Source: a virus
Lineage: Duplodnaviria > Caudoviricetes
IMG/VR virus record: IMGVR_UViG_3300028048_000071
Location: 32,001-96,000 of that record
DNA length: 64,000 nt
Reading direction: 5' to 3' (one strand)
In this document: positions 6,050 through 57,212 of the stretch, one piece after another
How the letters are laid out: each line of letters begins with the position of its first letter
Position numbering within the stretch: the first letter of the stretch is position 1
Translations under genes and position numbers: made by a program
The notes under the pieces: model-generated
Databases searched by the model: none
Told to the model about the DNA's origin: nothing
The model's input: only the letters and a program-made list of their open reading frames with translations

Positions 6050-8806
6050 TTGAAGGTTCTTCAGAATTTATATTATGTTTATAAGATACCATCAAATAAA
6101 ATTAACAATTTAAAAACATATAGTTTCAAAGATGCCTCAAGAGATGGTTGTGTGGTATCTATAGGGGATAATTTAGTCTTTGCTAAAATAAGAGAATATT
6201 ATGGGGAAACAGGAGACCATATATCTTTATATAACAAAGTTCAAGATATAAGAAAAGAAATGAAAAATATTAAAAAGCAACCTACTTGTCAAGAAAATAT
6301 AGATAAGTTAAAAGATTTACAACATCAATTAGATAAAATGCTTTTTATAGATGATATAGTTAATATAAAAGTTGTTACAAAAAAAGAATATAAACAAATT
6401 GCAAGAGATGGATTTGATTTAAATGGAAAACATTATGTAAGATTTATGGTTGGTTCTGGTCAAATGAGAAGAAACACTGTAAGTTTTATTAATGAAGAAT
6501 TATATGATTATATGCAAGAACATTTAATGTGTGGATTAGATAAAAAAATAAAGAATATAAATCTTGCAAAATTAAGTGCTTATTTTGCTTTATCTTTTTC
6601 TTCTGTTCTTTGGGTTAGAGAACCAAAGGTTTGTGTTATAAAAGATTTTGATACTGTGATACCAAATCAAAAGCTTAATTTTATCTATAAAGATGATGAA
6701 GGAAAAAATCAGGTTAAAGAGATATATAAAGATTTAAAACTTAATAGCTGTGATGGTCAGGGAATTATAAGTCCGGAAATGGCTCAAAATTGGGCGGAAG
6801 ATATGCACTTAAACTATGTCCCTTGTTCCTTTGTTGTAAGAACAGCATTTGTAAAAGGAAATCTAGTTACATTTGATTTTAAAGAATATGCAAGAGAAAA
6901 TGGTATAACTAAAATTAAGGATAGATATGGAACAGAATATAACATTGATGATATTGATGTATTATTATCGGAATCACAATTTAAAATGGCAAAATATTAT
7001 TCTGCTTGGGAAGGCTATCTAAGTTATCATCATTCTTATAACTTAAAATGGGGAGTAGCAAGATATAACAAAGAATTTGATGATGAATATGTATTGACTA
7101 ATTATCAATATATACAAGTTCTTGATTTAGATAGAGAAGATATAAAAGGATTAGTATCTTGTACAACAGATTGGTTTAAAAATATCTGTAGTGGAGATAA
7201 ATTATATTCTTTAGCTTATAATATAGGAATTAAAAATCCAGAAGATAGTTTATCTGAAATAATTAATTCTTGTGGAAGTGCTTTTACAAAAGCTATTGTT
7301 AAAAATTCAAAAATGTTAGAAGATGGATATGTTCAGAGAAAGATATATAATTCTATTAAAGAATCTATTCGTCAGGCTAAATTAGGAAGAATATGGGTTA
7401 AAGGAAATTATCAATTTATGATAAGTGACCCTATTGCTCAAGTAAGAAATGCCTTAGGTTTATCTCCAGATGGAGAATTGCAGGCAAATGAAGTTTATTC
7501 AAATTTCTGGAATGAAAGAAATGTTTCTGGAGAGGTTTGTTTGATGAGAAGTCCATTGACTCATTATTCAGAAATAAATGTTGAAAGATTAGCGAAAACA
7601 AAAGAAATGGAAAAGTGGTACAAATATATTTATAGTGGTGTCATTTATAGTATATATGATATTGCTACTGTTAAGCACGCAGATTCAGATTTTGATGGAG
7701 ATATAGTTTGTTCAACTAATAATGAATATTTTTTGAAGGGTGCTATGAGAAATGAAATTCCTATTACTTATGAAAAAGAAATGGTTCCTACTCAAAGAGT
7801 AACATTACCTAATTTTATTAGATGTGATGTTAAAGGATTAGATACTAAAGTTGGACAAATAACTAATTATTCAACAAGTATGATAGCTATGCTTCCATTG
7901 TTCAAAGGAGAAGGTCAACAAGAGCAGCTTCAAGAAATGCAAAAAAGAATAAAATTGCTTAGAGAAATACAAGGAGCAGAAATAGATAAAATTAAAGGGA
8001 CTACCCCACCTCAATTTCCTAGAGAATGGAGATATTGGGTTAAAATAGACAAAGATGATGATGATATAACTAAAGCAGAGAAATATAAATATAATTCAAT
8101 GGTTGTTAAGAAAAAACCTTATTTCTTTATTTATTTATATTCTACTTTGATGAAAGAATATAAAGCGTATGAAAAAAACTTTAATAGTATTAGTTACAAA
8201 CATTTTGGAATGTCTATTAAAGATTTATTAAGAAAAGAAAATAGGTCTGAAGGAGAAAATAAACTAATTAGAAAATATAGAAAATATTCTCCTGTGTTAG
8301 AAACAGATTGTGTTATGAATAATTTATGTAAAGAAGTAGAAAGTTCTGATTCTGATATTAAATTTCATCCAAGCAAGATTAGTTTATTAAACGAATTTGC
8401 AGATTATTCTAATATAGACGAAGAAAAATTAGTTACTCTGATGGATATATGTAAAACATATAAATCAGAAAAACAATTCAGAGGATTTTCTGCTATGATA
8501 GAAAATGAAGGAATTGCTGATGATGACGTTGCCGAAATTATGAATCAAGTTTTATACGGGCATAAAGATAAATATAGGGAAAAAATTAAAAACCTATTTA
8601 GCAATACCAGAGAACTTTTTAATCATTTAATGATGATGTGTCAAAGAAAAAATATTAATCACGATATAGTTTGGGATATAATGGGAGACGACATAATAGA
8701 TATTATACCCGTTTGTAATCCTACTGTTTTGATAGAAGATGATTATGGTGTTGAATATTTAGGACATAAATATCAATTACAGGAGGTGGATAATGTTAGT
8801 ATTTGA
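6050..8806 (+). CDS. yonO: single-subunit RNA polymerase, YonO-like (eukaryotic RdRP-related double-psi-barrel)
   Basis: CDGQG, KGNL, RSP and catalytic DFDGD motifs in RdRP/YonO order; 918 aa; upstream of late genes as in SPbeta. Confidence 0.85.
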   Translation: MKVLQNLYYVYKIPSNKINNLKTYSFKDASRDGCVVSIGDNLVFAKIREYYGETGDHISLYNKVQDIRKEMKNIKKQPTCQENIDKLKDLQHQLDKMLFIDDIVNIKVVTKKEYKQIARDGFDLNGKHYVRFMVGSGQMRRNTVSFINEELYDYMQEHLMCGLDKKIKNINLAKLSAYFALSFSSVLWVREPKVCVIKDFDTVIPNQKLNFIYKDDEGKNQVKEIYKDLKLNSCDGQGIISPEMAQNWAEDMHLNYVPCSFVVRTAFVKGNLVTFDFKEYARENGITKIKDRYGTEYNIDDIDVLLSESQFKMAKYYSAWEGYLSYHHSYNLKWGVARYNKEFDDEYVLTNYQYIQVLDLDREDIKGLVSCTTDWFKNICSGDKLYSLAYNIGIKNPEDSLSEIINSCGSAFTKAIVKNSKMLEDGYVQRKIYNSIKESIRQAKLGRIWVKGNYQFMISDPIAQVRNALGLSPDGELQANEVYSNFWNERNVSGEVCLMRSPLTHYSEINVERLAKTKEMEKWYKYIYSGVIYSIYDIATVKHADSDFDGDIVCSTNNEYFLKGAMRNEIPITYEKEMVPTQRVTLPNFIRCDVKGLDTKVGQITNYSTSMIAMLPLFKGEGQQEQLQEMQKRIKLLREIQGAEIDKIKGTTPPQFPREWRYWVKIDKDDDDITKAEKYKYNSMVVKKKPYFFIYLYSTLMKEYKAYEKNFNSISYKHFGMSIKDLLRKENRSEGENKLIRKYRKYSPVLETDCVMNNLCKEVESSDSDIKFHPSKISLLNEFADYSNIDEEKLVTLMDICKTYKSEKQFRGFSAMIENEGIADDDVAEIMNQVLYGHKDKYREKIKNLFSNTRELFNHLMMMCQRKNINHDIVWDIMGDDIIDIIPVCNPTVLIEDDYGVEYLGHKYQLQEVDNVSI

Positions 8807-46664: not shown

Positions 46665-47768
46665 ATGCAACTATTAAGTACATTAAATAGTCTTGATAAT
46701 GTTGCTGATGGTTCTACAAGAAAGCTTCTTAAAACCGCCACTTCAAGCGGTTCTGGGAATGCAGTAACCGCAGTTAGCATATCAGGCGACACTTTAACTT
46801 ATACATTAGGTTCATCGTTTTCATTGAGTAATCATACTCACGATGCAGCCACAACGTCTGCAGCTGGTTTTTTATCAGCCGCAGACAAAAAGAAATTAGA
46901 TGCAACTTCAGGTTATTATGGAACTTGTAGTACAGCAAAAGGGACTGCCGCAAAAGTTGTTGATTGTAGTAATTATGTTTTAGCAACTGGTGCAGTTATT
47001 TATGTCAAATTTACCAACGCCAATGAGTATAATGGTACTGCGACATTAAATGTTAATGGTACTGGAGCAAAAGATATTGCTAGAGTAGGTACAACAAAAA
47101 CAACCAGATATTATTGGAGTGCAGGAGAAGTAGTCGGTTTTGTATATGATGGTACAAATTATATAATAATTGAAAGAGGAACTGCCTCAACTACTTATTA
47201 TGGTGTTACAAAATTAATAACAACCGCAACAAATACATCTGAGGCTTTGGCGTTAACTCCAAAAGCATTAAATAATTTTGCACAAAATATGATTGCTAAT
47301 TATGCAGTATATTCATCTTCTTCTACCTATAATGTAGGAGATAGAGTTAGATATAGTTATAATACATATGAATGTATAGTGGCTATTTCAACAGCAGAAG
47401 CGTGGACTGCAGCTCATTGGAAGGCTTTAGACCCTTTACAAACACAGATAGATGAAAAATCTGAGGTTTCTATAAGTAGGAATTTAACTTCTGGAGAAAA
47501 AATAGGTACTATAACTATAGATGGAACAGCAACTGATTTATATGCTCCTGCTACAGGTAGTGTTAATACGTCTTTGGCTAGTCCACAACAAACATATTAT
47601 TTAACAGGAGTTCAAACAACTGCTGCTGGGCAAGGTAATTTATATAATAGTTATTTGTCTAGTACATATACAGGAATAAAATATGTAACTTCTACTTCTC
47701 AAGAAGGTGGAAGTTTATATGTAGACGACAGAGAAGTCGTTACAGGATTATATTATGAAATTTCATAA
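46665..47768 (+). CDS. tail fibre protein with CBM5/12-like module
   Basis: ATTSAAGFLSAADKKKLD, VKFT.AN...TLNVNGTGAK, TYNVGDRV.Y...YEC...W...HW. Confidence 0.72.
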   Translation: MQLLSTLNSLDNVADGSTRKLLKTATSSGSGNAVTAVSISGDTLTYTLGSSFSLSNHTHDAATTSAAGFLSAADKKKLDATSGYYGTCSTAKGTAAKVVDCSNYVLATGAVIYVKFTNANEYNGTATLNVNGTGAKDIARVGTTKTTRYYWSAGEVVGFVYDGTNYIIIERGTASTTYYGVTKLITTATNTSEALALTPKALNNFAQNMIANYAVYSSSSTYNVGDRVRYSYNTYECIVAISTAEAWTAAHWKALDPLQTQIDEKSEVSISRNLTSGEKIGTITIDGTATDLYAPATGSVNTSLASPQQTYYLTGVQTTAAGQGNLYNSYLSSTYTGIKYVTSTSQEGGSLYVDDREVVTGLYYEIS

Positions 47769-47792
47769 AATAAAAGAAAGGAGAGATAATTA

Positions 47793-50027
47793 ATGGCTAC
47801 AGTTAAGTTTTATAATGATAAAGAAAAAACTCAACAAGTATATCCAGAAATTGACCCAGATGGAAATTATCCTGGTGTCACAGTTGGACTTGCCAATAAC
47901 CTTGTTTCACCAGACGGTATAAATGATATAGATACTTGGCAATATCGTTCAACTGGTGGAGAACTTGATATTACTGATGGATATGCAACATTAAAGAAAC
48001 TTATTGGTACAACTGAATCTTCAACTATAGAAGAAAGTCTAACACATAACTTAATTACAACTGGTGTAACTTCTGTAACTGTTGATACAAGTACATTTAA
48101 AAGTCAAATAAGTACAAGTGGAACATATAATTTTATATATACTCCAACAATTACTTATTCATCTGCTTTAGTATATTCATTAAATAAAAGCACTTTTGCT
48201 AATTATGTAAGTCAAGCAACTGGAACATATACATTTACTTATACTGCTGTTGTTTCACCAGTAGATACATCTAGTGTTATACAAACTTTTACACAATCAA
48301 CATTTGTTAACAAAGTAAATGAAACACCAGATACTTATACATTTACATATAATGGTTCAAATTGGCAATTAGATGGAACAAACGTAACAATGAGTCAATA
48401 TGGTATTACAACAAAAGGAACTGAAACAAGTGGAACAACAATTACTGTTTATTATACAAGTAATTCTTGGTATTACAATAATGCCTCAATTTCTATGAGT
48501 AATTATGGTATTTCAACAACTGGCTCTGAATCTGTTGGAGACACAATTGCTATATCTTATACATCTAATGACTGGATGTTAAATAACACTGCAATAACAC
48601 TTGCTGATTACGGAATTGTAATTACAGGAGGAACTGCAGCAATTGACGATAATATTCAAATAATATTTATTGCTGAACAAGTAGGTGTAATTCAAACTGC
48701 AAATCCAACTGGATTATATAGTGTTGGAATGAACCAATTTAATAAAGATGGTTCTCAAATATTTAGAAATTATACATTAAATTCATCTGGTGGAATAAGT
48801 GCGGCAACTGGATATTATGTAATTTATTTTAAATGTATAGGAGGAGAAACTTATACTATTTATAATGAAACACCTTCATCTACTGTTAGAGTTGGTTATA
48901 GTGCAACTATCCCAACTACATCAAGCACTGTTACATTATTAAGTACAGTTTCATCATCTGAATGGGCTGATGTTCTAGTTAATGACTCATATAAATCACA
49001 CTATTATCCAAATAATCCTGGATATTTAGTTGTTGCGACAAGTGACATTGAAAATTTATGTTGTCATTTAACTTGGGAAGCAGTAAAGGATGATGTATAT
49101 GAATCTTATTTTAATTATACATTACCTATTCCATACACTGATAAAAATGGAGATGTAATAACAACTTATGGTTTAGTAAACTTAGATGATGGTACTCAAT
49201 ATTATGATGAAATAAATTTTGAAGACCTTAAATGGTATAAGAGAACAACTAGAATTGAATATAGTGCTGAAAACTTGGCAACTGTTCAAGCATTAGGTGT
49301 TCCATATTTATATGATGCAAATTGGATTTATTATGGTGTTAATACAGTTGAATATAACTTAGAAGACGTTTCTTATTCATATGAAATATCAAACTATGGT
49401 ACTGAAGAGTTTATTAACTCTGCATTGCCATTAACTGCAACAATATTCTATCAAGAAAACTTAAGAGATAAAATAAGATTCTCTATGGAAGTTATTGATA
49501 ATAAAGTTGAGAAAATTGATAGTGCTTCTACTTATACAAAATATTCAAGTGCAAAAGCATCTTATAACCTAGATAAAGCATTAAGACATATACTTGGTCT
49601 TGATGTAGATACATTCTCAACAAGCAGCACTTATGCTGTTGGTGATTATGTTGTATACGATGGTAAATTGTGGAAATGTACCACTGCCGTAACAAGTGCA
49701 GGAGCTTGGACTGGTAATGGATTATCTGTTAGAAGTAATAATAATGGAATATTACTTGATATGGACACAACTAAATTTTTAAAATTCTTAGATTCAGATA
49801 GACCTGGAAGTCCTTGTGGAATTCCTGAACTTTATGCAAATGATGGCGGTACATACCAAATTCATTTAACATATGCAACAACATCAAACGATTATCACTT
49901 CGCTAATGCTGCTGAATTAGAAGAACAAACTGGTCTTGTAGTAAGTAGTGCAACTGGTGGAGTATCATTTAGTTATAATAGTTCTTCTGCAAATTGGGAA
50001 GAATCATATTTATTTAAAGCAAATTAA
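47793..50027 (+). CDS. large tail fibre/baseplate protein with C-terminal CBM5/12-like module
   Basis: internal W...T/SMS.YGI repeats; STYAVGDYVVYDGKLWKC; last gene before cassette array. Confidence 0.72.
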   Translation: MATVKFYNDKEKTQQVYPEIDPDGNYPGVTVGLANNLVSPDGINDIDTWQYRSTGGELDITDGYATLKKLIGTTESSTIEESLTHNLITTGVTSVTVDTSTFKSQISTSGTYNFIYTPTITYSSALVYSLNKSTFANYVSQATGTYTFTYTAVVSPVDTSSVIQTFTQSTFVNKVNETPDTYTFTYNGSNWQLDGTNVTMSQYGITTKGTETSGTTITVYYTSNSWYYNNASISMSNYGISTTGSESVGDTIAISYTSNDWMLNNTAITLADYGIVITGGTAAIDDNIQIIFIAEQVGVIQTANPTGLYSVGMNQFNKDGSQIFRNYTLNSSGGISAATGYYVIYFKCIGGETYTIYNETPSSTVRVGYSATIPTTSSTVTLLSTVSSSEWADVLVNDSYKSHYYPNNPGYLVVATSDIENLCCHLTWEAVKDDVYESYFNYTLPIPYTDKNGDVITTYGLVNLDDGTQYYDEINFEDLKWYKRTTRIEYSAENLATVQALGVPYLYDANWIYYGVNTVEYNLEDVSYSYEISNYGTEEFINSALPLTATIFYQENLRDKIRFSMEVIDNKVEKIDSASTYTKYSSAKASYNLDKALRHILGLDVDTFSTSSTYAVGDYVVYDGKLWKCTTAVTSAGAWTGNGLSVRSNNNGILLDMDTTKFLKFLDSDRPGSPCGIPELYANDGGTYQIHLTYATTSNDYHFANAAELEEQTGLVVSSATGGVSFSYNSSSANWEESYLFKAN

Positions 50028-50049
50028 TGAATGAAAGGAGAATAATTTT

Positions 50050-50211
50050 ATGTTAGAAATAATTAAATCATTCTTCTCCCCTGTAGGGGGGGGCGAACAA
50101 GCTTCGCTTCACAGAATGGAAATATACAAAGGAAGGAGGATTTGCGTCAAGAGTATAGTAACTCTTCAAGCAATTCCGACTTCAATAGAAAGAGAGGTGA
50201 AGAGTATCTAA
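50050..50211 (+). CDS. leader peptide 1 of cassette-selection bank (53 aa in current G8 state; not in ORF track)
   Basis: GAAAGGAG SD; MLEIIKSFFSPV-GGG-EQ...EVKSI*; one extra G fuses it to the 50142-50486 frame. Confidence 0.8.
   Translation: MLEIIKSFFSPVGGGEQASLHRMEIYKGRRICVKSIVTLQAIPTSIEREVKSI
50086..50093 (+). repeat. poly-G tract 1 (G8), candidate phase-variable switch
   Basis: G8 after codon 12 of leader 1 in an AT-rich genome. Confidence 0.9.
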
Positions 50212-50291
50212 AATCTTCTTATGGAAGATTTGCAGATGGAAGCAACGCTTCTGTCTTAATCTCTTCATCTTTCGCAAGTGAAAATATCGTA

Positions 50292-50300
50292 GGGGGGGGG
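50292..50300 (+). repeat. poly-G tract 2 (G9)
   Basis: GTA-GGGGGGGGG-C in frame in extended leader. Confidence 0.9.
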
Positions 50301-50426
50301 CAGCTACGCTCGAATAATTATTCAGCAAGCAGTCGCTCTTATAAAGGAGGTGAAGGCAATTACGCTAGCTTAATGTCTAGTGATTTTGCCGGAACCGAGA
50401 CAATGTTAAACCCTGACCGCATAGTC

Positions 50427-50435
50427 GGGGGGGGG
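50427..50435 (+). repeat. poly-G tract 3 (G9)
   Basis: GTC-GGGGGGGGG-C in frame in extended leader. Confidence 0.9.
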
Positions 50436-50582
50436 CGAAATCCATTTGGATTCGTCTTCAAAGAAAGGGGGCAAGCCACTATTTAGACTTGCCTCTTATA
50501 CACGAAATGATTTCTCTTTCAAGAAGGGAGGTGCAGGCTTAACAGTCTGTACTCCTTTTTATTATGAAGGAGGTGTGTGTTA

Positions 50583-50966
50583 ATGCAAATTAATAAAGAC
50601 CTTATTATTAGTGGAACTAATATGACTTTAGGCGATACAGCCTATAAAGATATATATTCAACAACTGAAACCAAGACTAATAAGGTTTGGATTGATGGTC
50701 GTACTATATATAGAAAGGTTATTACTGGAAATTTATCTCAGGCACAATGGAATCACGGAATAACTTTTGATACTATTGTTTCTATAGAAGGTGTTTTTAT
50801 AAATACTAATTCTGGTAATACATTTAATATACCTAGTACAAGACCTGATTTTCCTGATTATCAAGTTGGTGTATTTGTGAATAATACATTTATAACTTTA
50901 GAACGTGCTACTGGTGCTCAACGTGCGGATATGAGTTTTTATGTAGTTTTAGAATATGTGAAATAA
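50583..50966 (+). CDS. cassette 1: tail-tip/receptor-binding module
   Basis: MQINKDL N-terminus; YSTTETKTNKVWIDGRTIYRKV fibre-tip domain; own SD AAGGAGGTG. Confidence 0.75.
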   Translation: MQINKDLIISGTNMTLGDTAYKDIYSTTETKTNKVWIDGRTIYRKVITGNLSQAQWNHGITFDTIVSIEGVFINTNSGNTFNIPSTRPDFPDYQVGVFVNNTFITLERATGAQRADMSFYVVLEYVK

Positions 50967-50995
50967 CACACACAACAGGCTAACAGCCTAACATT

Positions 50996-51403
50996 ATGGC
51001 TAAATTTACAATTAATAAAGACTTCTTTGTAGGTGATACAAATTATTCTTTAGAGGATATTCCTTTTGGAGTAGAACCCGAAGTCCCATCTAATCAAAAT
51101 TATTTTAAATTTGGGAATATGATGATTTGTTGGGGTTGGAGAAACGTAACTTTAAACTGGAATGGGAATGGAGCTTATGCTGATTTTAATTTAGCAAACG
51201 ATGGAACTCCATATAAAGATACTGCATATAGAATTGTTGGGAGTTATGCTGGAAGCACAGCTTATTATGCAGGAAACTGGTGCTGGTTTGAAAGCAAAGG
51301 GACGACAAGTGCAAGAGTAAATTGCTGGTGTGAACAAGCTAATAAACCAACATCTATTATTATAGGTTTTATAGCCATTGGAAGATGGCGTGATGCTGAA
51401 TAA
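50996..51403 (+). CDS. cassette 2: gp53-C-like tail-tip module
   Basis: TINKDF N-terminus; YFKFGNMMICWG...FIAIGRW; no local SD. Confidence 0.72.
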   Translation: MAKFTINKDFFVGDTNYSLEDIPFGVEPEVPSNQNYFKFGNMMICWGWRNVTLNWNGNGAYADFNLANDGTPYKDTAYRIVGSYAGSTAYYAGNWCWFESKGTTSARVNCWCEQANKPTSIIIGFIAIGRWRDAE

Positions 51404-51439
51404 AAACATTTCGTGATGAGCAAGCCTTTTGGCGAACTT

Positions 51440-51850
51440 ATGAAGATTAATAAAGATTTAATCGTAGAGGGTACAAATCATACATTAGAAGATATACCTT
51501 TTGATATTGATTTATCTGATGTGTATTCTACAAATGAAACAAAAACAAATAAGGTTTGGATAGATAACAGACCTATATATAGAAGAGTCGTTACCGGTAC
51601 AGTTACCGCTGCAGGTCAAGGACAAACTGTAACCACTATAAGTAATATAAGACAAATCTTGACTATAAGAGGAGTTATGTATTCTAATTATGGTCAATGG
51701 TGGAATATTCCTAATTATCACGGAGAAGCAGGATATGTAAATTCCATATACTGCGATGCAAATGGAAGAGTCAATTTAGGAGTTGGGAACTTTTATAGTG
51801 CCGGTAAACCTTTTATAATTATTTTAGAGTATACAAAATCTACTGACTAA
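51440..51850 (+). CDS. cassette 3: tail-tip module (paralogue of cassette 1)
   Basis: MKINKDL start at 51440; YSTNETKTNKVWIDNRPIYRRV...LEYTK; no local SD. Confidence 0.75.
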   Translation: MKINKDLIVEGTNHTLEDIPFDIDLSDVYSTNETKTNKVWIDNRPIYRRVVTGTVTAAGQGQTVTTISNIRQILTIRGVMYSNYGQWWNIPNYHGEAGYVNSIYCDANGRVNLGVGNFYSAGKPFIIILEYTKSTD

Positions 51851-51886
51851 CATTGTCTGAACGGCAAAAAAAATAATGCCGATTCT

Positions 51887-52309
51887 ATGAAAATAAACAA
51901 AGACTTAATTATTAGTGATACAAATTATACTTTAGGAGATGTTGCTGATTTTATATCAAATAAAATAGAAATTAAAGAGCTTGCTTCTACAACAGGAAGT
52001 GGCGAAAACATTACAATAGATTTGACCGATAGTTATAAAAATTATGACTTTTTATTAGTTCAATGGAGTCCATATTCTTTATATGGGAATATTGATTTTT
52101 ATATTATAGATACTGCTACAATTTTATCTACACAATATGGAAATTATCCTTATGAAACCGGACACCTTCAAACAACATCAGTATGGTCAAATGTCGTATT
52201 TGGCTTTTCATCAACAACTAGATTTATAGCTAAATGTGCAAATACAGGAACTTGGGGAAAAGGTTCTTTTAAAATAATTTCTATTAAAGGAATAAAATTA
52301 CCTCACTAA
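51887..52309 (+). CDS. cassette 4: tail-tip module
   Basis: MKINKDL N-terminus; LTDSYKNYDFLLV...IKGIK; no local SD. Confidence 0.72.
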   Translation: MKINKDLIISDTNYTLGDVADFISNKIEIKELASTTGSGENITIDLTDSYKNYDFLLVQWSPYSLYGNIDFYIIDTATILSTQYGNYPYETGHLQTTSVWSNVVFGFSSTTRFIAKCANTGTWGKGSFKIISIKGIKLPH

Positions 52310-52354
52310 TCACATAATAGAGCGACCGCTCGTAAATGAGCAAAAGCGAATTAA

Positions 52355-52732
52355 ATGATTATAAACACAGATTTAATCTACCCTATCGGTAGTATATATT
52401 TAAGCGTCAACGCAACCAATCCGTCAAAGTATTTTGGCGGAGCTTGGGAGCAAATTACATCAGACGCATATTTAAAGATAGTAACTCAAAATGCTGGTTC
52501 TTTAGGTGGAACCAGTGTAGACCACAAGATACCTATTGAAAGTATGCCTAGTCACGACCACGGTGTGTACGGAGCATTAACTGGAGAAAATAAACCTATT
52601 ACCAATACTGGTAATGATTGGGGAGTTAATACAACACACGGATGGACTACAAATGCCATTTCAAAGACTGGCGGTGGACAGGCTTACTATCCTTATTACT
52701 ATGGCGTTTATGTTTGGAAAAGAACTGCTTAA
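52355..52732 (+). CDS. cassette 5: gp10-C/tail-collar-like module
   Basis: MIINTDL-IYPIGSIY...FGGAWE...MPSHDH...VYVWKRTA; no local SD. Confidence 0.78.
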   Translation: MIINTDLIYPIGSIYLSVNATNPSKYFGGAWEQITSDAYLKIVTQNAGSLGGTSVDHKIPIESMPSHDHGVYGALTGENKPITNTGNDWGVNTTHGWTTNAISKTGGGQAYYPYYYGVYVWKRTA

Positions 52733-52775
52733 ATATACTCTCTTATGATGTTTTGAAGATTTAGATACAAATCTT

Positions 52776-53165
52776 ATGATTATAAATACAAATATGTTGT
52801 TAGCAGCCTATCCTGTAGGTTCGCTATATTTAACAACAAATGAAATAAACCCAGGAACCTTATTTGGTGGAACCTGGGAAAAATTGACTGGGGATGCTTA
52901 TCTTAAAATAGTGACAAGTAATCCTGGTCAATATGATGGTACGTCAGACCAACATAAAATACCTATCAATAGTATGCCTTCTCACAGACACGGTAATAGA
53001 GTTACTTTAAATATGTCTCAAGGTGCTGGTCAAGATAGAAGCCTTGTAGTTGGTGGAGGTCAAGTATGGAATACTGCGGACAATTATCAAAATCAATTTG
53101 TTGGTGGTGGACAACCTTATTATCCATATTATTATGGTATTTATGTTTGGAGACGTACAGCATAA
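52776..53165 (+). CDS. cassette 6: gp10-C/tail-collar-like module
   Basis: MIINTNML-AYPVGSLY...FGGTWE...MPSHRH...WRRTA; no local SD. Confidence 0.78.
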   Translation: MIINTNMLLAAYPVGSLYLTTNEINPGTLFGGTWEKLTGDAYLKIVTSNPGQYDGTSDQHKIPINSMPSHRHGNRVTLNMSQGAGQDRSLVVGGGQVWNTADNYQNQFVGGGQPYYPYYYGIYVWRRTA

Positions 53166-53193
53166 TCGGAATTGCTTAATGCAATAAAACTTT

Positions 53194-53367
53194 ATGAAAA
53201 ATATTTTATTAAATAAAATCCTTCACATCGGGGGGGGGCAGAAATGTCTGCTCTTCACAAGAAAGGAGGGTTGGCTATTATTTTGTAACGTCAACTCTTC
53301 AAGGAATGGAGGTGGCAGACATTTAATATCTGCTATCTCTTGTGGAGGTGTAATCTTATGCAAATAA
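53194..53367 (+). CDS. leader peptide 2 (57 aa in current G9 state; not in ORF track)
   Basis: MKNILLNKILHI-GGG-QK...ILCK*; no local SD; stop lies just inside cassette 7 start. Confidence 0.72.
   Translation: MKNILLNKILHIGGGQKCLLFTRKEGWLLFCNVNSSRNGGGRHLISAISCGGVILCK
53230..53238 (+). repeat. poly-G tract 4 (G9)
   Basis: ATC-GGGGGGGGG-C after codon 12 of leader 2. Confidence 0.9.
53230..53361 (+). promoter_or_regulatory. RBS bank 2: three SD modules
   Basis: AAAGGAGGG 53262, GGAGGTG 53308, GGAGGTG 53344; first two in hairpins without a cassette ATG. Confidence 0.8.
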
Positions 53368-53750
53368 ACGTAGATTTAATATATCCTATAGGTTCTTTAT
53401 ATTTAACAACGTCTACTGTATCACCAGCAGTTTTGTTTGGTGGTACTTGGGAACGCATTAAAGGTAGATGTATTGTAGGTGTAGACGAAAATGACACCGA
53501 CTTTAATACTGTTAGTAAAACCGGCGGTGAAAAAACACATACATTGACTGTGGATGAAATGCCAGCACACAATCACAATATTCAAGGTGCGATGAATGGT
53601 GCTTCTGGAAGTAGTTGGTGTGTTGCTTTAAATAGTGATAGAAGCGTAAACTGGTCTATCACTAATGGGTCACAAAATAAAGGTGGTGGACAAGCACATA
53701 ACAATCTACAACCTTATTACACTGCTTATATATGGCGAAGAACCGCATAA
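53358..53750 (+). CDS. cassette 7: gp10-C/tail-collar-like module
   Basis: MQINVDL-IYPIGSLY...GGEKTHTLT..EMPAHNH...AHNNLQPY...WRRTA; own SD. Confidence 0.8.
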   Translation: MQINVDLIYPIGSLYLTTSTVSPAVLFGGTWERIKGRCIVGVDENDTDFNTVSKTGGEKTHTLTVDEMPAHNHNIQGAMNGASGSSWCVALNSDRSVNWSITNGSQNKGGGQAHNNLQPYYTAYIWRRTA

Positions 53751-53781
53751 GATTACTTAGATATTAAATTGTCGAATAATT

Positions 53782-54159
53782 ATGAAAATAAACTTAGATT
53801 TTATATATCCTGTTGGAAGTATTTATATGAGTGTTAATGCTACAAATCCAGGAATTTTATTTGGAGGAACTTGGACTCAATTAAAAGATAGGTTCTTACT
53901 TGGTGCTGGAAATACATATTCCGCTGGAGATACTGGTGGAGAGGCAACTCATACGTTAACTTATAATGAAATGCCTCAACATAGTCACACATTGTATAAT
54001 GAAAATGCAAGTGGATGGACTTTAAGTAAAGCATCTTTAAAAACAGGAACAAATAAAGGATATTCTGGTAATATCCAAATTGGAGATGCTGGAGGTAATC
54101 AAGCACATAATAATATGCCTCCATATCTAGTAGTCTATATGTGGAAAAGAACTGCATAA
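53782..54159 (+). CDS. cassette 8: gp10-C/tail-collar-like module
   Basis: MKINLDF-IYPVGSIY...GGEATHTLT..EMPQHSH...WKRTA; no local SD. Confidence 0.8.
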   Translation: MKINLDFIYPVGSIYMSVNATNPGILFGGTWTQLKDRFLLGAGNTYSAGDTGGEATHTLTYNEMPQHSHTLYNENASGWTLSKASLKTGTNKGYSGNIQIGDAGGNQAHNNMPPYLVVYMWKRTA

Positions 54160-54205
54160 ATTATTTTGACAAAAAGAGTTGACACTAAAATAATAGTGTT
54201 ATAAT

Positions 54206-54634
54206 ATGAAAATAAATGAAGATTTAATAATTAATGGAACGGATTTAAATTTAAATGATATAGTACAAAAAATATCGGCACTTGAAAAATATCAAGTAGA
54301 ATATAATGCTGATTCAATTACTTTGACATTTACAAATAAATATCCTTGTATAGCAATTACATATATGTCTCACGCAGGATGGGGATTTGGAGGAAATGAA
54401 TGGATTTGGAATGCTGATTTAACTAATTCTGTTCATTTAGGTTATACTAAAGCCTATGTTAATGGTAATGACTTATTATCAAGATTTATGAGTTCTGTGT
54501 CAATTAACTATTGTCCAACTGCGGGAGTAGAACATACAACTGTAAGAACTACAACCAAGGGTAACTCTGGTAATAGCAATGGACAATCAGTATGTGTTAT
54601 TTGTTTACCATTAATAACTAATTCAAAAGAATAA
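54206..54634 (+). CDS. cassette 9: tail-tip module of a different type
   Basis: MKINEDLIINGT N-terminus shared with cassettes 1,3,4; no local SD. Confidence 0.68.
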   Translation: MKINEDLIINGTDLNLNDIVQKISALEKYQVEYNADSITLTFTNKYPCIAITYMSHAGWGFGGNEWIWNADLTNSVHLGYTKAYVNGNDLLSRFMSSVSINYCPTAGVEHTTVRTTTKGNSGNSNGQSVCVICLPLITNSKE

Positions 54635-54656
54635 TTATAAGAAATAGAGTAAAATG

Positions 54657-54701
54657 AAAGGGGAATAACTTAACTAAAATTTTTGTTATTTCCTTTTTTT
54701 T
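54657..54701 (+). terminator. intrinsic terminator ending the late/cassette operon
   Basis: AAAGGGGAATAAC...GTTATTTCCTTT then T run. Confidence 0.7.
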
Positions 54702-54706
54702 ACCGC

Positions 54707-54735
54707 TTGACATTATCTTCTTTTTGTGCTATAAT
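54707..54735 (+). promoter_or_regulatory. sigma-A promoter for modification/replication operon
   Basis: perfect TTGACA-17 bp-TATAAT with extended TG. Confidence 0.88.
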
Positions 54736-54794
54736 GCAATTACAATAGAAGGGAGATAATGTGAGGAGACAATACAAGAAGGGGTGAAACAACA

Positions 54795-54965
54795 ATGAAG
54801 AAATATTTATTGTATTTATTACGATGGCAATTGTCTACTCCAATTTTAGCTATTGTTTTATATATATTCAAAACAAATGAAATTTTAGAAACCATAATAG
54901 CCAATTTAATTGGTGGTCTAATTTTCTTTTGGGTTGATAAATGGATATTTAAAGAAAAGAGGTGA
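54795..54965 (+). CDS. small membrane protein (56 aa; not in ORF track)
   Basis: GGGGTGA SD; MKKYLLYLLRWQLSTPIL...ANLIGGLIFFWVDKWIF. Confidence 0.7.
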   Translation: MKKYLLYLLRWQLSTPILAIVLYIFKTNEILETIIANLIGGLIFFWVDKWIFKEKR

Positions 54966-54971
54966 GTTGGA

Positions 54972-55172
54972 ATGAATAATGATTTTCTAAACGATGATAT
55001 TAAAGATGCTCTTATTGAAAGAGATGGATTTAGACAGCAAGTTGAAGATTTAACTAAAATATTAAAAGAAATTCATCTTTATTTGGTGGGGAGATTTAAT
55101 GAGACTCAAGATACAAAATATTTAGATGACTTAATTAAATTCCAAGAAATGTGTGGTGACTATTATGGATGA
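54972..55172 (+). CDS. hypothetical protein
   Basis: 66 aa, GAGGTG SD. Confidence 0.65.
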   Translation: MNNDFLNDDIKDALIERDGFRQQVEDLTKILKEIHLYLVGRFNETQDTKYLDDLIKFQEMCGDYYG

Positions 55173-56145
55173 TAGTCAATATATTATACAGATAATTAAA
55201 TCTGACAGAGAGTACCCTTATGGGCAATGTATAACACCTAAAGAAATTATTCATAAAGATAGTATTACATCGGAGGATATTATTATTGTAAATGATAAAC
55301 TTAATAAACTTGATGATATTGACTTATATTTAGTAGATTTAAAAGTTAAATTTGCACAAATAAATCCTGAAAAATATTATTTAAGTTACTCTGGAGGAAA
55401 AGATAGTCACTTGCTTTATTGGTTCATTAAAAATTATCTAAAATGCAATGATATTAAAATTATAGGGATAAATACTTATATGGAAAATCCTCAAATCCTA
55501 AAAAGAATTATTAAAAATAGTGATAAGGTTTTACTGCCTACTCTTAAACCATTTGAGATAAAAGAAAAATACGGAATTCCTTGTTTTAGTAAAGAACAAG
55601 ATTTCTATATATATTATTATCAGAATGCACTTAGAAAAGGTAAAAAACCTAGCAAAACAATACAACAGAAAATTGATGGGACTTATGATAAAGGATTTAG
55701 TGGTATTTCTAAAAAGGCAAGAGAATATGTAAAAAGTGGTAATGCTCACAATATAACTCACTTGTGTTGCTATTATTTAAAGAAAAAACCAGCACACGAC
55801 TTTGAAAAAGAAACTGGTTTAAAGCCTATATTGGGAATTAGAAGTGAAGAATCTGCTTTAAGAAAAAGACAGTATACAACTTGCTTTTCTAAAAATGGTA
55901 AATTCACGCCAATACATAATTTAACAGATGACATTTTAGAAGGAATCATATCTAAATATAATATAGAAGTTCCAGAAATATATAATCATATAAAGAGGAC
56001 TGGATGTGAAGGTTGTCCTTATGGTAGTTATTATCACGAAACAGAAAAAGAACTTGAATTAATGACTCCAGCCAAAAAGAAGTTTGTTTGTGAGTTGTTT
56101 AAAGAAAGTTATGAAGTTTTAGGAATTGAGGTGAAGGAAGAATGA
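55165..56145 (+). CDS. PAPS reductase-family (PP-loop, Fe-S) protein
   Basis: SYSGGKDS PP-loop, CCYYLKKKP, GIRSEES..R, RTGCEGCP. Confidence 0.85.
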   Translation: MDDSQYIIQIIKSDREYPYGQCITPKEIIHKDSITSEDIIIVNDKLNKLDDIDLYLVDLKVKFAQINPEKYYLSYSGGKDSHLLYWFIKNYLKCNDIKIIGINTYMENPQILKRIIKNSDKVLLPTLKPFEIKEKYGIPCFSKEQDFYIYYYQNALRKGKKPSKTIQQKIDGTYDKGFSGISKKAREYVKSGNAHNITHLCCYYLKKKPAHDFEKETGLKPILGIRSEESALRKRQYTTCFSKNGKFTPIHNLTDDILEGIISKYNIEVPEIYNHIKRTGCEGCPYGSYYHETEKELELMTPAKKKFVCELFKESYEVLGIEVKEE

Positions 56146-57212
56146 GTCGTAAAAATATTAACTTTGATGTCAATGCAACAGAGAAGCCCGATAAACACGT
56201 TTTAAGGACGATGTGGCGACTTTATCGTCACGGGTATGCAAACCCTAATGCAACATATAAAGACGCTAGAATGACCGCAGAATTGATTGAGACGGCACGT
56301 GAGAAGGTTGCAAAAGCTTTAGGTTGTTATCCGGATGAAATATTCTTTACAAGTGGAGCATCGGAATCAAATAGTTGGATTCAAGCAAATTTTATTTTGA
56401 CTGTTGATGATAGGTCGCATCACTCTTTTGAAAGAATGGTTGGAATTAATCAATATGGTAAAGTAAAGACAATACCTTTAGTTGTTAGTGAAACTGGTGA
56501 ATGGCTCATTAATGAAGTAAAGGCTAATCCAAAACAAGAATACTTCCTTGATATGACACAAGGAATTGGTAAAATGAAAATAAATTTACACGATATGCCA
56601 AATGTAATTTATGCTAGTGCTTCAGGGCATAAATTTGGTGGAATTTTAGGTTGTGGAATACTCTATATAAGACACGATAAACAATCTAAAGTAAGACCAT
56701 TAATTGTTGGAAGTCAAGAAAAAGGAATTAGAGGAGGAACTCAAAATGTTCCGGCGATAGTTTGTTTTGGAGAAGCAATAGAAAAAGCGATGAAAGATAT
56801 TGATAAGAATCAAGATAAAATTAGAAAAGTTACAAATTACATATATACTAAAATAAAAACAGGAGATGCTATCCCGGTGGATGACACGCCGTTATTTATA
56901 TATAAGAGCATACCTGTAGATGTGCGTATGGCTGAGCCATATACAAATGTTATTAATATTACGTTCAATTATCTTACTGCAACGGCTGCGGTACAGATTT
57001 TTGATAAATTAGGTTTCAATATTAGTGCTGGTAGTGCCTGCAATTCGGAATCAGAAAGACCGTCAGAGGCTTATTTAGCAAGTGGGTACACGGAAGATGA
57101 GGCTATGAGGACTATTAGGATTTCAGTAGGTAAAAACAACACTATAAAAGAAGCCAAGAAATTCATAAAGGCTTTAAAAAAGGTTGTCGCACTTTATGAT
57201 GAAGAAGATTAG
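56142..57212 (+). CDS. iscS: cysteine desulfurase (IscS/NifS/DndA-like)
   Basis: YANP, IFFTSGASESN, SGHKFGG (PLP lysine), GGTQNV, SAGSACNS (catalytic Cys), IRISVG. Confidence 0.88.
   Translation: MSRKNINFDVNATEKPDKHVLRTMWRLYRHGYANPNATYKDARMTAELIETAREKVAKALGCYPDEIFFTSGASESNSWIQANFILTVDDRSHHSFERMVGINQYGKVKTIPLVVSETGEWLINEVKANPKQEYFLDMTQGIGKMKINLHDMPNVIYASASGHKFGGILGCGILYIRHDKQSKVRPLIVGSQEKGIRGGTQNVPAIVCFGEAIEKAMKDIDKNQDKIRKVTNYIYTKIKTGDAIPVDDTPLFIYKSIPVDVRMAEPYTNVINITFNYLTATAAVQIFDKLGFNISAGSACNSESERPSEAYLASGYTEDEAMRTIRISVGKNNTIKEAKKFIKALKKVVALYDEED

Follow-up and report, generated by a model that had tools for sequence, protein, structure and literature searches.

Why should the start of a phage gene be complementary, over ten or more perfectly paired positions, to the stop region of the same gene? 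This question is raised by a locus in a stretch of 64,000 nucleotides (nt), referred to below as the window, which comprises bases 32001-96000 of the IMG/VR virus record IMGVR_UViG_3300028048_000071 (Duplodnaviria; Caudoviricetes; 132,932 bp in total). The window has a G + C content of about 29% and nearly all of its genes are carried by the + strand, on which all the leaders, cassettes and arms described here also lie. The locus contains nine co-oriented open reading frames (ORFs) of 125-142 amino acids (aa) each, called here cassettes 1 to 9 (c1-c9), which occupy positions 50583-54634, 3' of a tail-fibre gene of 744 aa (47793-50027), and form two banks, each behind its own short leader (50050-50583 and 53194-53367). 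All nine start with an M-x-I-N-x-D-type N-terminus, and four of the nine (c5-c8) have the Gp10_C tip domain of Pfam, which elsewhere in phages constitutes the C-terminus of long fibre proteins. The first cassettes of the two banks are cassette 1 (50583-50966, 127 aa), a stand-alone tail-tip module, and cassette 7 (53358-53750, 130 aa), with the Gp10_C tail-tip domain (PF21939, 1.7e-29). The answer proposed here, with a little more confidence than doubt, is that long-range RNA helices lock the ribosome-binding site (RBS) of the first cassette in each bank, and that this cassette is probably silent unless a ribosome arrives from the repeat-controlled leader.

Two complementarities had been pointed out in a preliminary description of the window, and both were confirmed by reading the sequence: positions 50573-82 (GTGTGTGTTA) are perfectly complementary over 10 nt to 50964-73 (TAACACACAC), and positions 53350-61 (GTAATCTTATGC) over 12 nt to 53745-56 (GCATAAGATTAC). 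In cassette 1, the 5' strand (50573-50582) is the spacer between the Shine-Dalgarno sequence (SD) and the AUG, follows GGAGG directly and ends 1 nt before the ATG at 50583, and the 3' strand (50964-50973) begins with the TAA stop of the cassette; a repeat search extends this pair to 18 nt at 83%. In cassette 7, the 5' strand (53350-53361) includes the AUG (53358-60) and the 3' strand (53745-53756) includes the TAA stop (53748-50). The same description had named these two as the cassettes with their own SD, and this is borne out by the duplex energies with the anti-SD, which are -15.6 kcal/mol for cassette 1 (GAAGGAGG, 50566-50573) and -13.2 kcal/mol for cassette 7 (GTGGAGGT, 53342-53349) versus at least -3.5 kcal/mol for the other cassettes and leader 2; an energy of -6 kcal/mol or below is found in 80% of the other genes. 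When placements of the same geometry were taken at random in the window, perfect runs of at least 10 and at least 12 nt occurred with probabilities of 0.003 and 0.0003, respectively, and shuffles of the two actual intervals gave 0.0026 and 0.0002. Runs between the start and its own 3' flank were 4-8 nt in fifty real genes of the window, with one of 10, and mostly 4-7 nt in the non-first cassettes of eight loci, with two exceptions (9 and 10). Judged by these statistics, the two complementarities are not a product of chance; they are probably selected RNA helices, specific to the SD-bearing first cassettes.

Both helices are present in the predicted minimum free energy (MFE) structures of single-cassette transcripts with a base-pair probability of 0.99, which is 0.99-1.0 in larger contexts, and the cassette 7 helix is also present in the MFE structure of the whole of bank 2. 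Once the 3' flank is added, the probability that the spacer between SD and AUG is unpaired drops from 0.2-0.6 to about 0, and in c7-type cassettes the AUG is fully paired. In cassette 1, local structure is predicted to occlude the SD before the 3' arm is transcribed. The 36 other strong-SD genes of the window have a median unpaired probability of 0.5 for SD and spacer, and none of them has a value of 0.14 or below for the SD or of 0.02 or below for the spacer. An inhibitory structure over the initiation region, as found in translationally coupled genes, is accordingly part of the prediction for both banks.

The leaders offer a possible means of opening such a structure. Leader 1 (50050-50583) is a short SD-led ORF with three poly-G tracts (G8 at 50086-93, G9 at 50292-300 and G9 at 50427-35), and its read-through frame ends with the TAA at 50581-83, which overlaps the start of cassette 1 as TAATG (50581-50585). 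Leader 2 (53194-53367) is a short ORF with a G9 tract (53230-38) and no SD, and its read-through frame ends with the TAA at 53365-67, 7 nt beyond the A of the cassette 7 ATG. Runs of seven or more G in the window are confined to the leaders (11 overlapping G7 matches versus 0.74 expected), and tracts of G8-G11 occur only in leaders. After every tract each of the three frames stops inside or 9-17 nt upstream of one leader arm, counted from the end of the stop to the start of the arm and in the order of the ladder of pairings described below, the remaining frame reading on, and each frame is tied to a separate stop and a separate leader arm. After tract 3 of leader 1 the stops are at 50484-86 and 50540-42, and the third frame reaches cassette 1 via the TAA at 50581-83; the closest of the non-read-through stops (50540-42) is 31 nt short of the inner arm. 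In leader 2 the other frames stop at 53286-88 and 53324-26, the closest 24 nt short of the inner arm. Because the other frames stop 24-31 nt upstream of the arm, only a read-through ribosome would cross and unwind its 5' strand. In all the lineages compared (introduced below), the read-through stop overlaps or abuts the start of the first cassette and the other frames end 18-40 nt short of the arm; the overlap or close adjacency of stop and start, with a ribosome path across one strand, is also seen in L002, L005, L007, L010 and L076.

The number of outputs per leader is 2n+1 for n tracts and equals the number of cassettes or sub-leaders. Three tracts correspond to seven outcomes, which are seven cassettes in L005 and L012 and six cassettes plus the SD-less leader 2 in the window, and one tract corresponds to three outcomes, as for c7-c9 in the window, both banks of L010, and L076. 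Tract lengths vary between near-identical relatives (G8/G10 in L003/L004 and (ATAC)14/15 in L076/L075) and also among L003, L004, L005 and L012. The locus has in this way one feature of a simple sequence repeat (SSR) contingency locus, namely, a hypermutable tract in a translated region whose length is polymorphic between close relatives.

The lock may be pictured as follows. The closed helix, together with the local structure around the SD, would block loading of the 30S subunit on c1 and c7, the sole strong-SD cassettes. The poly-G lengths would decide which single frame reaches the TAATG (c1) or the TAA 7 nt past the AUG (c7), and a ribosome in that frame would unwind the 5' arm, terminate on the start site and re-initiate there, which would be ordinary coupling by RNA unfolding and reinitiation; in the other frames the ribosome would halt 24-31 nt upstream and the lock would remain shut. 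Since the cassette's stop codon is part of the 3' arm, terminating ribosomes should hold the lock open once translation is under way. In addition, as the next spacer is held against the leader by this same helix, it probably helps to pass the "second-cassette" frame to cassette 2 or 8. That the first cassettes are off unless a leader ribosome arrives, and that expression is mutually exclusive, is what we infer from the arrangement of these elements.

Is the pairing conserved? Relatives found by the fibre protein are L002 (92% identity), L007 (79%), a clade of L003, L004, L005 and L012 (74-75%) and L010 (55%). A search with cassette 7 gave 2,779 stand-alone homologues, and the contigs of three of these gave two further lineages. 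The leader of L078 has (CAAT)13 and (AC)9, and in L075-L080, a widespread prophage-like element, the leader has (ATAC)14-15, with three cassettes and a holin behind it. The leader is uninterrupted in L002, L005 and L007, where it is one ORF of 148-185 aa ending with TAATG/TAGTG on the start of the first cassette, and TAATG or TAGTG is kept in L002, L007, L005 and L010. The 5' arm of cassette 1 is the same 10 nt as in the window (GTGTGTGTTA) in both L002 and L007; the coding sequence of cassette 1 in L002 is unrelated to that in the window, yet both arms are retained. Furthermore, pairing between the start and its own 3' flank is found in four further first cassettes with unrelated sequences: cA1 of L010 (5' arm TGTTGCATA, 9 nt), cB1 of L010 (5' arm ATATTTATGTTTAAA, 15 nt, spanning the AUG), c1 of L078 (5' arm GTCTAGTTTA with TAAACTAGAC, 10 nt) and c1 of L076 (5' arm ATGTTTATGCT, 11 bp including two G.U pairs). 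Cassette 1 of L078, the only cassette of that lineage which entered the comparison, pairs in the same register as cassette 1 of the window, the flanks being homologous in a MAFFT alignment, with four double compensatory changes and zero disruptive ones. In seven independent first cassettes, matched start/flank pairs have a mean energy of -13.6 kcal/mol versus -7.1 kcal/mol for mismatched pairs, and among 5040 permutations only the true pairing attains the observed mean stability. Structurally and comparatively, therefore, the reading that the initiation regions are masked appears well supported.

Several side observations were made on these relatives. Replacement of a cassette leaves the final 25-40 nt of its predecessor, together with the spacer arm, in place 3' of the new stop (L002 8700-8740; L003 14030-14065), so the arms belong to the position and not to the cassette. 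In L078, the spacer after cassette 2 (6964-7004) is identical to S7-8 of the window and the spacer after cassette 3 (7385-7430) resembles S2-3; as neither has a partner in the leader of L078, the locus looks like a recombinant mosaic, and its distal cassettes may be unaddressed. Frame-shifting repeats other than poly-G, which are (CAAT)8-13, (AC)9 and (ATAC)14-15, occur in L010 (12393-12424), L078 (5778-5832 and 5996-6014) and L075-L080 (about 6430-6487) with the same architecture of stops, arms and cassettes. TGA apparently encodes Trp in L010 (12537-14923) and L078, which suggests a Mollicutes-like host for both; cB1 of L010 contains a single in-frame TGA and reads as an open frame with code 4, which gives 742 aa for the fibre gene. 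The L010 fibre protein used as a query gave no match besides itself. The compact version in L075-L080, which consists of a leader of 55-67 aa with (ATAC)n, three cassettes, a holin and a lysin, is very common in public assemblies, one cassette protein being indexed in 331 blocks of the collection, and these loci are probably prophages since they are flanked by bacterial-looking genes. A pattern search of IMG/VR with the leader end (ATCTCTTG..GGAGGTGT) gave 58 matches, of which only the one in the L002 contig had a G tract upstream; the rest were set aside as chance matches.

The two helices are also part of a larger pattern. The longest perfect complement of each spacer with its leader constitutes a strictly nested series, in which, in bank 1, leader 50168-79 pairs with spacer 53166-77, 50204-18 with 52755-68, 50332-39 with 52319-26, 50384-408 with 51848-69, 50501-09 with 51407-15 and, innermost, 50573-82 with 50964-73, and in bank 2, leader 53275-99 pairs with spacer 54174-96, 53321-31 with 53759-69 and, innermost, 53350-61 with 53745-56. 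From this strict nesting it follows that the c1 and c7 helices are the innermost rungs of a ladder. Sixfold nesting is found as well in L005 (12649-16149), with arms of 10-14 nt and sequences unrelated to those of the window.

Moreover, each innermost rung is extended by an outer arm. In leader 1, the composite helix obtained with RNAduplex includes arm-b (50530-50550; GGTG, AGGCT, AGTCTGT), which carries the TAA of the "cassette 2" frame (50540-42) in an internal loop, and arm-b' in spacer S1-2 (50975-50995; ACAGGCT, AGCCT, CATT), which ends beside the ATG of cassette 2 (50996) and has an alternative local hairpin, AGGCT-AAC-AGCCT. In leader 2, arm-b (53318-53332; core ATTTAATATCT, 53321-31) contains the TAA of the "cassette 8" frame (53324-26), and arm-b' in spacer S7-8 (53758-53773) starts 1 nt after the inner arm, with 8 nt between its end and the ATG of cassette 8 (53782). 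RNAduplex without prior information gave such a two-part helix in every lineage, with energies of -21 to -28 kcal/mol and z-scores of -3.0 to -6.6 versus dinucleotide shuffles. The 5' strand always consists of the outer arm with the "second-cassette" stop, a loop of 12-27 nt holding the SD of the first cassette (22 nt, 50551-72, for cassette 1 and 17 nt for cassette 7) and the inner arm, which is the spacer between SD and AUG in c1 and the spacer plus AUG in c7. The 3' strand consists of the inner arm at or on its own stop codon, 1-9 nt, the outer arm and 0-15 nt to the next AUG. The inner helix adjoins the arm directed at cassette 2 or 8 and may therefore serve that cassette too.

Two further pairings were seen in leader 1. 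In the MFE structure of bank 1, tract 2 with its 5' flank (50281-50297) pairs over 17 bp, many of them G.U, with CTCTCTTATGATGTTTT in S5-6 (52738-52754). Two SDs, AAGGGAGG (50524-31) and AAGGAGG (50567-73), flank an anti-SD-like CTCCTT (50551-56), which can pair with either and could thus act as a local toggle; the corresponding position has CTCCTTC in L002 and CCTTC in L005.

How far, then, does the lock hold? A number of points weigh against it. The helices of c1 and c7 do not stand alone, being the innermost rungs of the ladder between leader and spacers, and the whole case for the lock is based on sequence. The two strings GTGTGTGT and ACACACAC are low-complexity sequence. The cassette 1 helix is absent from the MFE structure of the 3.2-kb bank 1, which recovers the ladder helices of c5, c4 and c3 and lacks those of leader 2 and c6; MFE folds on the kilobase scale are, however, regarded as unreliable and were not taken as counter-evidence. 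The SDs are mostly paired even without the 3' flank (0.04-0.22 unpaired), so repression may not depend on the long-range arm. In L002 the cassette 7 helix is weakened in the part that holds the AUG, the window-like arm being reduced to 9 bp + U.U + 2 bp. In the clade of L005, L003, L004 and L012 the partner of the 14-nt arm of S1-2 lies upstream of the SD of cassette 1, at a distance of 13 nt, and what is left at the homologous position is a weak, G.U-rich pairing of 7 bp; because the arm is displaced upstream, coverage of the RBS by the 3' flank is not universal. The SD of this clade is paired as well (0.04-0.18 unpaired), by eye via a local CCTTC/GGAGG hairpin. In these models what seems to be conserved is the need for a structured RBS at the first cassette, which the long-range arm usually, but not always, provides. 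The statement in the preliminary description that the initiation regions are masked by their own 3' ends has to be narrowed accordingly: it stands for the helices, whose predicted probability is close to one, and for the spacers, which are predicted to be about 0% unpaired, but not for the AUG of cassette 1, which is predicted to be about 70% free, so that SD and spacer are what is occluded, nor for the L005 clade.

Some of these points favour another explanation, namely, that the helix mainly holds S1-2 (or S7-8), and with it the SD-less AUG of cassette 2 (or 8), beside the "second-cassette" leader stop for re-initiation across the helix, occlusion of the RBS being a side effect. The helix is the innermost member of a nested ladder that pairs every spacer with one leader segment, only 1-2 nt separate it from the outer arm bearing the stop of the second-cassette frame, and the arm of the L005 clade, which pairs upstream of the SD, masks nothing. 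Nevertheless, the inner arm lies exactly on the spacer between SD and AUG or on the AUG in five of six lineage/bank combinations, and an unusual degree of structure is seen at the RBSs of first cassettes even in the clade with a displaced long-range arm. This explanation is considered unlikely, and it is compatible with the lock, of which it is a complement more than an alternative. Another idea is a "split RBS", in which an orphan SD of the leader would be delivered to a distant AUG across the helix; the distance of 7-28 nt from spacer arm to AUG and the position of the SDs, variably 5' or 3' of the arms, speak neither for nor against it.

It is improbable that the helices are processing stems, that is, substrates for RNase III-type or other nucleases that cut the polycistronic RNA, with secondary effects on translation. 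Stems of this kind acting over kilobases are known around rRNAs, the 5'/3' duplex of the icaR mRNA is an RNase III site, and the two-part helices total 20-27 bp; their perfect runs, however, are just 9-15 bp and are broken by large asymmetric loops, and cleavage would leave unexplained why the arms are tied so closely to frame-specific stops and to the codons at which each cassette begins and ends. It is also improbable that the helix sets the stop of a cassette beside its own start for re-initiation and is an enhancer, not a repressor, of expression: although in every lineage the stop codon lies in the 3' arm or directly beside it, a closed helix would bury the very start region to be re-used, and the first cassettes already own the strongest SDs of the locus.

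Hardly any weight is given to a feature acting at the DNA level, in which the inverted repeats would be boundaries or scars of cassette exchange, or inversion sites, without a function in RNA. The unrelated cassette of L002 does lie exactly between two conserved repeats, and shuffling of cassettes is evident in the mosaic of L078. On the other hand, neither a serine invertase/resolvase nor a match to RVT_1 (reverse transcriptase) was found in the 133-kb genome, whose sole integrase is 76 kb away, and inversion would silence the cassettes since all of them are co-oriented on the + strand. In addition, the repeats differ between lineages and yet remain complementary, including G.U pairs, which is sensible only in RNA, and the old 3' tail persists with the spacer arm after replacement, as expected of positional arms and not of a mobile unit. 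Finally, coincidence in AT-rich, low-complexity sequence is scarcely credible: short inverted repeats abound, with 111 pairs in 4.9 kb, and one unrelated gene of the window also reaches 10 nt, but the joint probability for c1 and c7 is about 1e-6, four further first cassettes independently replicate the pattern, the exact permutation test gave 1/5040, and placement, permutation and shuffle statistics effectively refute it.

If the helices are locks on the first cassettes, as preferred here, they may belong to a still more general device, that is, they may be the exclusivity locks of a purely translational one-of-N selector. In such a selector the frame set by the repeats would choose among 2n+1 stops, each in or 9-17 nt before one arm of a nested ladder whose helices span kilobases and address one SD-less receptor-binding cassette each, and the SD-bearing first cassettes would be shut unless the read-through frame is used; the design would recur with G(n), (CAAT)n, (ATAC)n and (AC)n in large phages, in phages that read TGA as Trp and in the widespread prophage-like element. 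This proposal is put forward tentatively, belief and doubt being nearly balanced and doubt a little the heavier. Simple unmasking of every cassette by passing ribosomes was also considered and is not favoured; it would give cumulative and not exclusive expression, and in many cases the stop precedes its arm by 9-17 nt, so that a ribosome halted there would leave the arm closed.

In the surroundings of the locus, a CBM_5_12 carbohydrate-binding module is found in both upstream fibre proteins (367 and 744 aa, 46665-50027), and the shared N-terminal M-x-I-N-x-D-L-I peptide of the cassettes is an obvious candidate for attachment of the tips to the fibres. Immediately 3' of the locus (55153-57212) are genes for a PAPS-reductase-domain protein and a class-V aminotransferase (cysteine-desulfurase-like), a pair reminiscent of sulfur-transfer or DNA/tRNA-modification modules. 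A BLAST search of the locus against 50,697 phage records gave only short similarities in the tip domains and no relative of the leader, and an Rfam scan of 49000-55500 gave four weak, sub-threshold chance matches and no known structured RNA family. Likewise, no description of such a locus was found in a literature search.

Which known systems does the locus resemble? A likeness in the pairing itself is seen in icaR of Staphylococcus aureus, in which the 3' end of the mRNA pairs with the ribosome-binding region and represses initiation, an anti-SD-like motif being paired with the SD and RNase III causing decay. The locus shares with icaR the pairing of a gene's own 3' end to its initiation region within one mRNA; here, however, the arm pairs with the spacer between SD and AUG or with the AUG, includes the stop codon, and lies inside a polycistronic array with a putative unlocking route borne by the leader. 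The outcome, alternative receptor-binding tips from one locus, is that of the Gin inversion of Mu, the Cin inversion of P1, shufflons and diversity-generating retroelements. Unlike in those systems, neither an invertase nor a reverse transcriptase was found here, every cassette is a complete ORF that starts with an ATG of its own and points in the same direction, and the complementarity is pair-specific and not a common recombination site; none of the features by which invertase systems and shufflons are recognized (a recombinase, segments in both orientations and a common crossover site) is seen in the locus, nor is the reverse transcriptase of diversity-generating retroelements seen in the genome.

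With the SSR contingency loci (CAAT in Haemophilus, poly-G in Neisseria and Campylobacter) the locus shares hypermutable tracts in a translated region that shift the frame. In the known loci one gene is toggled by truncation, whereas here the tract is in a leader and the frame sets the leader stop, which presumably selects a separate downstream gene; the phage contingency loci treated in a 2025 preprint are simple on/off frameshifts in T-even genes (10.1101/2025.10.21.683753). Translational coupling, for which RNA unfolding and reinitiation are the two accepted models, is a further relative, and coupling by RNA unfolding is represented by the coat-replicase and coat-lysis pairs of MS2/fr, gene VII-IX of f1 and rpmI-rplT of E. 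coli (PMC12548453). Common to these and the present locus are a structure over the downstream RBS that is, or here would be, opened by a ribosome of the upstream ORF and an overlap of stop and start, here TAATG. In contrast to them, the masking partner here is found at the stop of the masked gene itself, some 380 nt further downstream, instead of in the preceding ORF, which is a non-conserved leader framed by hypermutable repeats, and the helix is a single member of a nested ladder that would serve up to nine alternative genes. Termination-reinitiation at the termination upstream ribosome-binding site (TURBS) of caliciviruses, with tethering of rRNA, is cited as a parallel to coupling in the same paper (PMC12548453). 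In both, stop and start overlap, a motif complementary to rRNA (here GGAGGTG) precedes the stop by a short distance, and structure bars, or here would bar, independent initiation on the downstream ORF; here, however, there are a bacterial SD system, a long-range helix closing over the whole ORF and many alternative targets.

What is new here is that the partner is the gene's own stop region, that the putative key is a repeat-framed leader and that the helix is integrated in a nested ladder, and the surrounding system, provided that it functions in the way its architecture suggests, would be of a new kind. The RBS would then be masked across about 380 nt by the gene's own stop region, inside a repeat-programmed switch of receptor-binding tips without a recombinase. 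The locus is compact and modular, consisting of leader, arms and cassettes, and is found in many phage contigs from gut and rumen, so that it is relevant to the reading of host range from metagenomes and to the engineering of switchable gene sets. If the reading is true, translational coupling would be extended from neighbouring genes to addressed, long-range targets, and phages would possess, beside DNA inversion and diversity-generating retroelements, a third route to bet-hedging on host range.

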